In this document: one piece after another, positions 241 through 526 of the stretch
Layout: the number at the start of each line of letters is the position of its first letter
Numbering within the stretch: the first letter of the stretch is position 1
Sequence record: EF517086.1
Reading direction: 5' to 3' (one strand)
Source: a phage
Length of the DNA stretch: 526 bases
Made by a program: the position numbers and the translations under genes
Notes under the pieces: model-generated
Told to the model about the DNA's origin: nothing
Databases searched by the model: none
The model's input: only the letters and a program-made list of their open reading frames with translations

Positions 241-246
241 AGGAGG
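241..246 (+). promoter_or_regulatory. Shine-Dalgarno ribosome-binding site (AGGAGG) for the downstream HNH gene
   Basis: Perfect AGGAGG core at 241-246, 5-nt spacer (TTATC), then GTG at 252-254 opening the HNH reading frame. It sits 2 nt after the upstream TAA, suggesting translational coupling. Confidence 0.75.
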
Positions 247-251
247 TTATC

Positions 252-526
252 GTGGAAAACTGCATTGAATGGACCGGAAGTGTCAACTCTAAGGGTTATG
301 GTCGTAAGTGAGTTAATGATAAACTTGTGACTCCACATAGGCATATCTATGAGGAGACATATGGTTCAGTTCCAACAGGAATTGTGGTGATGCATATCTG
401 CGATAACCCTAGGTGCTATAACATAAAGCACCTTACGCTTGGAACTCCAAAGGATAATTTCGAGGACATGGTTACCAAAGGTAGACAGGCTAAAAGAGAG
501 GAACTAAGCAAGAAACTTACAGAGTC
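252..526 (+). pseudogene. HNH homing endonuclease gene (T7-group gene 7.7-like), GTG start, interrupted by in-frame TGA at 309-311; otherwise open to window end (3' end beyond window)
   Basis: Translation from GTG 252: (M)ENCIEWTGSVNSKGYGRK-[TGA]-VNDKLVTPHRHIYEETYGSVPTGIVVMHICDNPRCYNIKHLTLGTPKDNFEDMVTKGRQAKREELSKKLTE... This carries the hallmark phage HNH motifs (C.EW.G..N..GYG, HR..YE..G.VP.G, V.H.CDN..C.N..HL.LGT..DN..D...KGR). A single TGA at codon 20 lies where family members have Trp (TGG). Pseudogene is a working label: readthrough or sequencing error would make it an intact CDS. Possible in-frame internal starts are GTG 327, GTG 387 and ATG 390, the last two preceded by AGGA at 377-380. 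Confidence 0.6.

Follow-up and report, generated by a model that had tools for sequence, protein, structure and literature searches.

A derived GC>AT-rich allele of the bacteriophage T7 HNH endonuclease gene 7.7 with an opal codon, probably from a mutagenised lineage

The locus and the interrupted gene 7.7

The window analysed here is a stretch of 526 nucleotides from a phage (sequence record EF517086.1). It aligns to bacteriophage T7 (NC_001604, positions 19597-20122) over 526/526 bases at 97.5% identity, gap-free and with 13 mismatches, and neither indels nor ambiguous bases occur across it. The alignment and the annotation of NC_001604 place the 3' part of gene 7.3 at positions 2-238 of the plus strand, comprising residues 22-99 (the last 78 codons) and the stop codon TAA at 236-238. 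The product of gene 7.3 is a tail/host-range protein which carries the note 'required for virion infectivity' in the T7 record. Directly downstream lies gene 7.7 with a Shine-Dalgarno sequence of its own, AGGAGG (241-246, plus strand), which is the same as in the wild type, and with a GTG start codon at 252 that corresponds to NC_001604 position 19848, the annotated start of the T7 HNH endonuclease gene 7.7. The initial annotation had proposed a ribosome-binding site and a GTG start for an HNH frame at this place, and both are those of the known gene. The window shares its locus, gene order, Shine-Dalgarno sequence and start codon with T7 gene 7.7 (NP_041994, HNH_3, homing-endonuclease-like), as expected of an orthologue, and holds 91 of the 130 codons of the gene. 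Consensus scans of the window detected no promoter-like and no terminator-like sites.

The frame starting at 252 reads VENCIEWTGSVNSKGYGRK*VNDKLVTPHRH..., where the wild-type T7 counterpart reads ...GYGRKWVNGKLV.... Its truncated part (252-311, plus strand) runs from the GTG start through 19 sense codons to an opal stop. This TGA (309-311, plus strand) is the only stop in the frame, which stays open from 312 to the end of the window at 526. The gap-free alignment gives TGG (Trp20) at 309-311 in wild-type T7, and the stop is a single G>A step away from it, at position 311 in a 5'-GG context, as had been supposed. The companion suggestion for the nearby GAT codon (Asp; 318-320, plus strand) also proved right, the wild-type codon being GGT (Gly23) with G>A at 319. 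The HNH_3 catalytic domain (PF13392) was matched at gp7.7 residues 29-69 (336-458, plus strand), with 47.1 bits against a gathering cut-off of 24.8 when codon 20 was translated as Trp. The whole match is located downstream of the opal stop, in agreement with the earlier observation that every HNH motif lies 3' of the TGA with no later stop up to 526. The gene had been called otherwise intact; however, its 91 codons hold six more missense changes (D3N, G10S, G23D, P39S, S70F and G82R) and one synonymous change, and the uninterrupted 130-codon frame of a functional gene is broken in this allele by the TGA at codon 20. G23D, the synonymous change at 344, P39S, S70F and G82R fall in the open part of the frame 3' of the stop (312-526, plus strand).

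By sequence profile, the closest solved relative of gp7.7 is I-HmuI (PDB 1u3e), the HNH homing endonuclease of the Bacillus phage SPO1. The match, which is weak (E = 0.009), extends from the N-terminal 'GY.R...GK' through the HNH to the C-terminal helix-turn-helix region.

Conservation around the stop was examined in an alignment of T7 gp7.7 with 35 homologues (36 sequences). The stop had been described as lying at a conserved-Trp position of the family; however, column 20 is Trp in 9/36 sequences and otherwise Arg, Tyr, Asn, Gly, Thr and others, and the Trp found family-wide is W7 (31/36). Among the eight sequences at 71% identity or more, six have Trp and two have Tyr at column 20. By this alignment, Trp20 is conserved only among the close relatives of T7 and variable across the family. 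Residues upstream of the stop are conserved, with Cys at position 4 in all 34 sequences ungapped there and Y16 in 33/36, next to W7. This conservation shows that the first 19 codons truly encode part of gp7.7, and the possibility that they lie outside the HNH protein does not hold. Natural termination or restart at this place, the other circumstance that could have undone the initial reading, was not found in the relatives, as none of the 35 homologues has a stop or a restart at the position of codon 20. Glycine is present at position 23 in 23/36 members of the family and in 8/8 close relatives, and at position 82 in 28/30 sequences ungapped at that column. With both glycines conserved, each of G23D and G82R would probably be harmful even without the stop.

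One homologue, P0007, had looked like a natural restart with its 112 residues and its start at about residue 19. This start is a gene-calling artefact, and the ORF in the contig is full-length. The contig of P0007 (L014, 1451-1839) holds an intact 7.7-like ORF with a start codon, ATG, that overlaps the gene 7.3 stop, TGA (ATATGA).

Thirteen substitutions and their spectrum

Five of the substitutions, all given here for the plus strand, are located in gene 7.3 and all five are missense. These are G>A at 12 (R25H), in a CG context and one of the two GC>AT sites outside 5'-purine-G; A>T at 81 (E48V), the only change other than GC>AT; C>T at 195 (S86F); G>A at 206 (A90T); and G>A at 222 (G95D). 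The eight in gene 7.7 are G>A at 258 (D3N), G>A at 279 (G10S), G>A at 311 (W20 to opal), G>A at 319 (G23D), C>T at 344 (synonymous at His31, the only silent change), C>T at 366 (P39S), C>T at 460 (S70F, which adjoins the invariant Asn69) and G>A at 495 (G82R). The interruption had been regarded as a single point event, whereas the stop is accompanied by 12 further substitutions within the 526 bases, seven in gene 7.7 and five in gene 7.3. A base-call error at 311 alone, which had also been offered, is unlikely with 11 changes of the same type surrounding that position.

The natural relatives YpP-R, phiA1122 and HZ2R8 match T7 at 12 of the 13 sites where they are aligned (phiA1122 is gapped at 81), and all three have G at position 311. 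At position 258, HZ2R8 has A as the window does, and Asn is natural at this residue in HZ2R8, P0005 and P0006. Since the natural relatives agree with T7, the window alleles at all 13 sites are derived. A 30-mer across the TGA and GAT codons had no exact match in IMG/VR, the JGI metagenomes or the GTDB genomes, none of the phage records searched is closer to the window than wild-type T7, and megablast of the window against plasmids and E. coli genomes gave no matches.

The spectrum consists of eight G>A, four C>T and one A>T. GC>AT changes therefore make up 12/13 and AT>GC changes 0, for which P = 4e-9 if all types of substitution were equally likely; in a T7 lineage mutagenised with an alkylating agent, about 90% or more of the derived changes are expected to be of this class. 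A purine stands 5' to the mutated G at 10 of the 12 GC>AT sites (83%) against a background of 0.51-0.56 (p = 0.02-0.05 with these twelve sites). Small as this sample is, the fraction lies within the range of about 76-84% that marks a lineage mutagenised by an agent of the nitrosoguanidine type. Only one of the mutated sites is a CpG. Mutagenesis of T7 with nitrosoguanidine or hydroxylamine has been reported to give mostly GC>AT changes (PMC6042481), and 76% of the GC>AT changes induced by MNU were found at 5'-purine-G, 'as expected' for such agents (PMC3576011).

Purifying selection has left no signature on the 13 changes. Twelve of them alter the protein, and the non-synonymous share of the GC>AT changes (11/12) is compatible with unselected mutation, for which 73% is expected (p = 0.13). 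Over the same window, T7 and phiA1122 differ by 12 synonymous and seven non-synonymous changes (Fisher p = 0.003 against the window) and by six GC>AT, eight AT>GC and five transversions (Fisher p = 0.0009). These comparisons bear on natural divergence, that is, on the view that a wild T7-like phage, with gene 7.7 on its way to becoming a pseudogene, is the source of the record. Decay of homing-endonuclease genes does occur in nature, 7.7 is missing from many T7-like phages, and many matches to Studiervirinae records end at about position 247. However, relatives show balanced spectra with mostly synonymous changes, in contrast to 12/13 GC>AT and 1/13 synonymous in the window, and gene 7.3 has been struck as hard as gene 7.7, its invariant C-terminus included. 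Neither the natural spectrum nor the purifying selection on neighbouring needed genes that should accompany natural pseudogenisation is seen, and we consider such a decay extremely improbable.

Origin of the substitutions

Four mutated T7 isolates, K, K115, P and P82 (AY264775-AY264778), were used as comparators, and the substitutions of K (AY264775) and P (AY264777) were counted against the wild type AY264774. We take these isolates to be the ones described by Bull et al. (2003), a study that reportedly passaged T7 in the presence of nitrosoguanidine. In isolate K, 416 substitutions (1.06%) were counted, of which 93% are GC>AT and 80% lie at 5'-purine-G; isolate P has 307 (0.79%), with 93% GC>AT and 84% at 5'-purine-G. 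The window, with 92% GC>AT and 83% 5'-purine-G, bears the same signature and is indistinguishable from them. The single A>T at 81 may be compared with the roughly 7% of changes that fall outside the GC>AT class in K and P. Within the stretch covered by the window, K has nine mutations and P has three. None of the mutations in the window is common to K, K115, P or P82, and the window therefore represents an independent lineage; K and P themselves carry hundreds of mostly private substitutions.

On this evidence, we regard it as highly probable that the window derives from a T7 lineage subjected to GC>AT mutagenesis, most likely by a methylating agent of the nitrosoguanidine type (MNNG/MNU), and that it carries an opal null allele of gene 7.7. 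Both the identity of the mutagen and the laboratory nature of the lineage are what we infer from the pattern of changes. A G:C>A:T process would have struck this lineage many times with little effective or purifying selection, the most probable chemistry being O6-methylguanine, formed by the nitrosoguanidine-type agent, mispairing with T. The initial annotation had hinted at transition mutagenesis and had listed a laboratory opal mutant among its options. The 12/13 GC>AT changes, the 10/12 sites at 5'-purine-G and the likeness to K and P support both strongly.

Another C/G-directed process might have made the same changes, and gene 7.7 would be a null allele in that case as well. Hydroxylamine or bisulfite in vitro, EMS, heat deamination and a cytidine deaminase (APOBEC/AID, a base editor or a deaminase fused to T7 RNA polymerase) come into consideration. 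A share of 12/13 GC>AT does not by itself separate such agents from the nitrosoguanidine type, as hydroxylamine also yields mostly GC>AT in T7 (PMC6042481), EMS likewise gives GC>AT, and a passage of PMC8923235 cites work in phage T4 in which heat raises G-C to A-T transitions. It is the sequence context that tells against them. The purine preceding G at 10/12 sites is the pattern of SN1 methylating agents and matches the 80-84% of K and P. On the 5' side of the mutated C, T is found in 4/12 and a pyrimidine in 7/12, which is background, so that neither the TC/CC contexts of APOBEC-type enzymes nor the dipyrimidines of UV-type damage are enriched. A transcription-coupled deaminase would be expected to leave a strand bias, which is absent (eight G>A against four C>T, with 156 G and 102 C; p = 0.77). 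Therefore, it seems rather unlikely that a process of this kind, and not a nitrosoguanidine-type agent, was at work.

The density of changes requires separate consideration. The 13 changes in 526 bases amount to 2.5%, above the genome-wide values of 1.06% in K and 0.79% in P, and the Poisson probability of 13 or more is 0.005 at the K rate and 0.0004 at the P rate. Among the 526-base windows of isolate K, only 0.5% reach 13 substitutions. The density suggests either a heavier overall load than in K and P or a local cluster of mutations. In the older literature, mutations caused by nitrosoguanidine are described as clustered around replication forks. For T7 under this agent, a yield of about four viable mutations per genome and infection has been reported (PMC6042481).

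The differences might also be other than biological, arising from sequencing or assembly error (a damaged template, low coverage) or from later alteration of the sequence, in which case the phage itself would have TGG. Apart from the A at 258 in HZ2R8, the public sequences searched share none of the alleles; template deamination likewise yields C>T and G>A; and it is suspicious that a conserved motif of gene 7.3, a gene needed for infectivity, should carry so many changes. However, the 5'-purine-G context is not what deamination damage would produce; it argues for real alkylation mutagenesis, and the 526 bases are free of indels and ambiguous bases. Isolate K in GenBank, where this stretch holds nine substitutions and other 526-base stretches as many as 13, indicates that such densities are real in propagated phage. 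We therefore hold an artefact to be very unlikely.

The motif in question is GGKKSLSVARSSGGG(I/L)NI at the C-terminus of gp7.3, which T7, YpP-R, phiA1122, HZ2R8 and a Logan contig share without variation. Three of the five gp7.3 changes (S86F, A90T and G95D; positions 195, 206 and 222) fall within it and are non-conservative, and isolate K has one change there, G94S. Gene 7.3 is essential. It is mutated in the window as heavily as the dispensable gene 7.7, and the source genome may have been crippled or even non-viable. If the genome was non-viable, the dispensability of gene 7.7 would no longer be the point that accounts for the stop. The alternative is a viable T7 lineage which bears a genome-wide load near 2.5% (about 1000 substitutions) and tolerates three changes in the gp7.3 C-terminus. 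We regard this as unlikely. Its load would be more than double the 416 substitutions of isolate K and would point to an unusually extreme mutational robustness in a functional dsDNA virus, with the opal codon still a plain null allele. A viable source would also add one more data point on the random damage, including that to the conserved gp7.3 tail, which T7 tolerates.

No special explanation is needed for the appearance of a stop among these changes, as the chance of at least one nonsense change among eight hits in the gene 7.7 segment is about 28%. Each gene segment offers five GC>AT changes that would create a stop, of which gene 7.7 carries one and gene 7.3 none. This distribution fits a viability filter, but with so few changes it does not prove one. 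The records of the mutated isolates contain what may be events of the same kind. Genes 4.7, 5.7 and 5.9 of K and genes 0.4 and 4.2 of P are present only as misc_feature 'similar to', with no coding sequence. We read these annotations as dispensable genes that have been knocked out, and the opal codon in gene 7.7 would then have counterparts in both isolates. Gene 7.7 itself, unlike in the window, is still annotated as a coding sequence in all four isolates (K, K115, P and P82).

Expression and dispensability of the interrupted gene

On the reading of a mutagenised lineage, one hit would have converted TGG (Trp20) of gene 7.7 to TGA. Ribosomes would start at the GTG at 252 and make a peptide of 19 residues, which would be released by RF2 at UGA-G. 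The HNH endonuclease would not be made, and the allele would be a simple opal null.

It had been proposed instead that the UGA is read through by Trp-tRNA to give a dosed-down nuclease. In this case, Trp-tRNA or an opal suppressor would supply a low and useful dose of endonuclease, or the codon would be recoded in some other way. Reading by Trp-tRNA would restore the wild-type residue, and its competition with RF2 at UGA leads to readthrough of about 2% at 37 C and 4% at 25 C in an E. coli K-12 reporter (PMC10570021). In addition, the base at +4 is G and not U, which a passage of PMC5289835 gives as strongly terminating. However, a programmed UGA should be kept in relatives and accompanied by an adjacent RNA element, and neither is observed. 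The stop is private and derived, with G at 311 in T7, YpP-R, phiA1122 and HZ2R8, and 0/35 homologues have a stop or restart once the short P0007 is recognised as an artefact. A search of the window against Rfam gave no match at E of 1 or below, and the RNA fold around the UGA is no better than that of shuffled sequence (z = -1.13), so that no significant structure surrounds the codon. In a product of readthrough, two conserved glycines would be replaced (G23D and G82R) and S70F would stand beside the invariant Asn69, and the surrounding mutations are without sign of selection. Useful readthrough or recoding is therefore scarcely credible to us.

A trace of full-length gp7.7 with the wild-type Trp, still carrying the six missense changes, is conceivable. 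In E. coli B, RF2 is more active than in K-12, which would cut readthrough further. Possible in-frame restarts are the GTG at 327 and the GTG at 387 or ATG at 390, the latter two behind a weak AGGA at 377-380. The restart products would be without C4, W7 and Y16, and the later ones also without R30. We infer that the products of both readthrough and restart are inactive.

Of the initial interpretation, the TGG to TGA change at Trp20 and the suspicion of transition mutagenesis have stood, whereas the otherwise intact gene, the single event, the family-conserved Trp and the readthrough have not. The opal codon is thus an ordinary nonsense mutation in a dispensable phage gene within what is most probably a footprint of chemical mutagenesis, and carries little biological weight. 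Its use is as a caution, since an in-frame stop in a near-wild-type gene needs to be read against all differences from the reference. In this case, the process can be recognised, and recoding ruled out, from the spectrum, the sequence context and the share of non-synonymous changes.

Gene 7.7 is dispensable for the growth of T7, which would explain why the stop was tolerated. A triple homing-endonuclease deletion phage, T7 delta2.8 delta7.7 delta3.8, has been built and propagated (bioRxiv 10.1101/2025.09.07.674715), and the genome-reduced T7 clone MZ375281 is without 369 of the 393 nucleotides of the gene. The PhageMaP preprint contains no reference to 7.7. The deletion in MZ375281 (L006 839-860 versus L001 852-1220) extends from the GTG to 24 nucleotides before the stop and keeps the 3' end of 7.7, which contains the ribosome-binding site of gene 8. 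The function of gp7.7 is lost in both phages, as in the window; they differ from it in being deletions of coding sequence, whereas the window has a point nonsense change with the DNA left in place. In T7, the stop of 7.7 overlaps the ATG of gene 8 (TAATG), and a premature stop in 7.7 could weaken translational coupling to gene 8.

Two further observations concern the neighbourhood of the gene in natural relatives. The HZ2R8 record (MG832642; L004 838-1033) gives the gene that follows 7.7 as 'DNA primase/helicase, Gene product 4'. The label seems to be an error of annotation, as by position the gene is gene 8, the head-tail connector. The contig L014, a natural T7-like contig from Logan (SRR12232783), holds a second HNH_3 gene of 144 residues at 42-476, upstream of the gene 7 homologue, which is another free-standing endonuclease in this neighbourhood.
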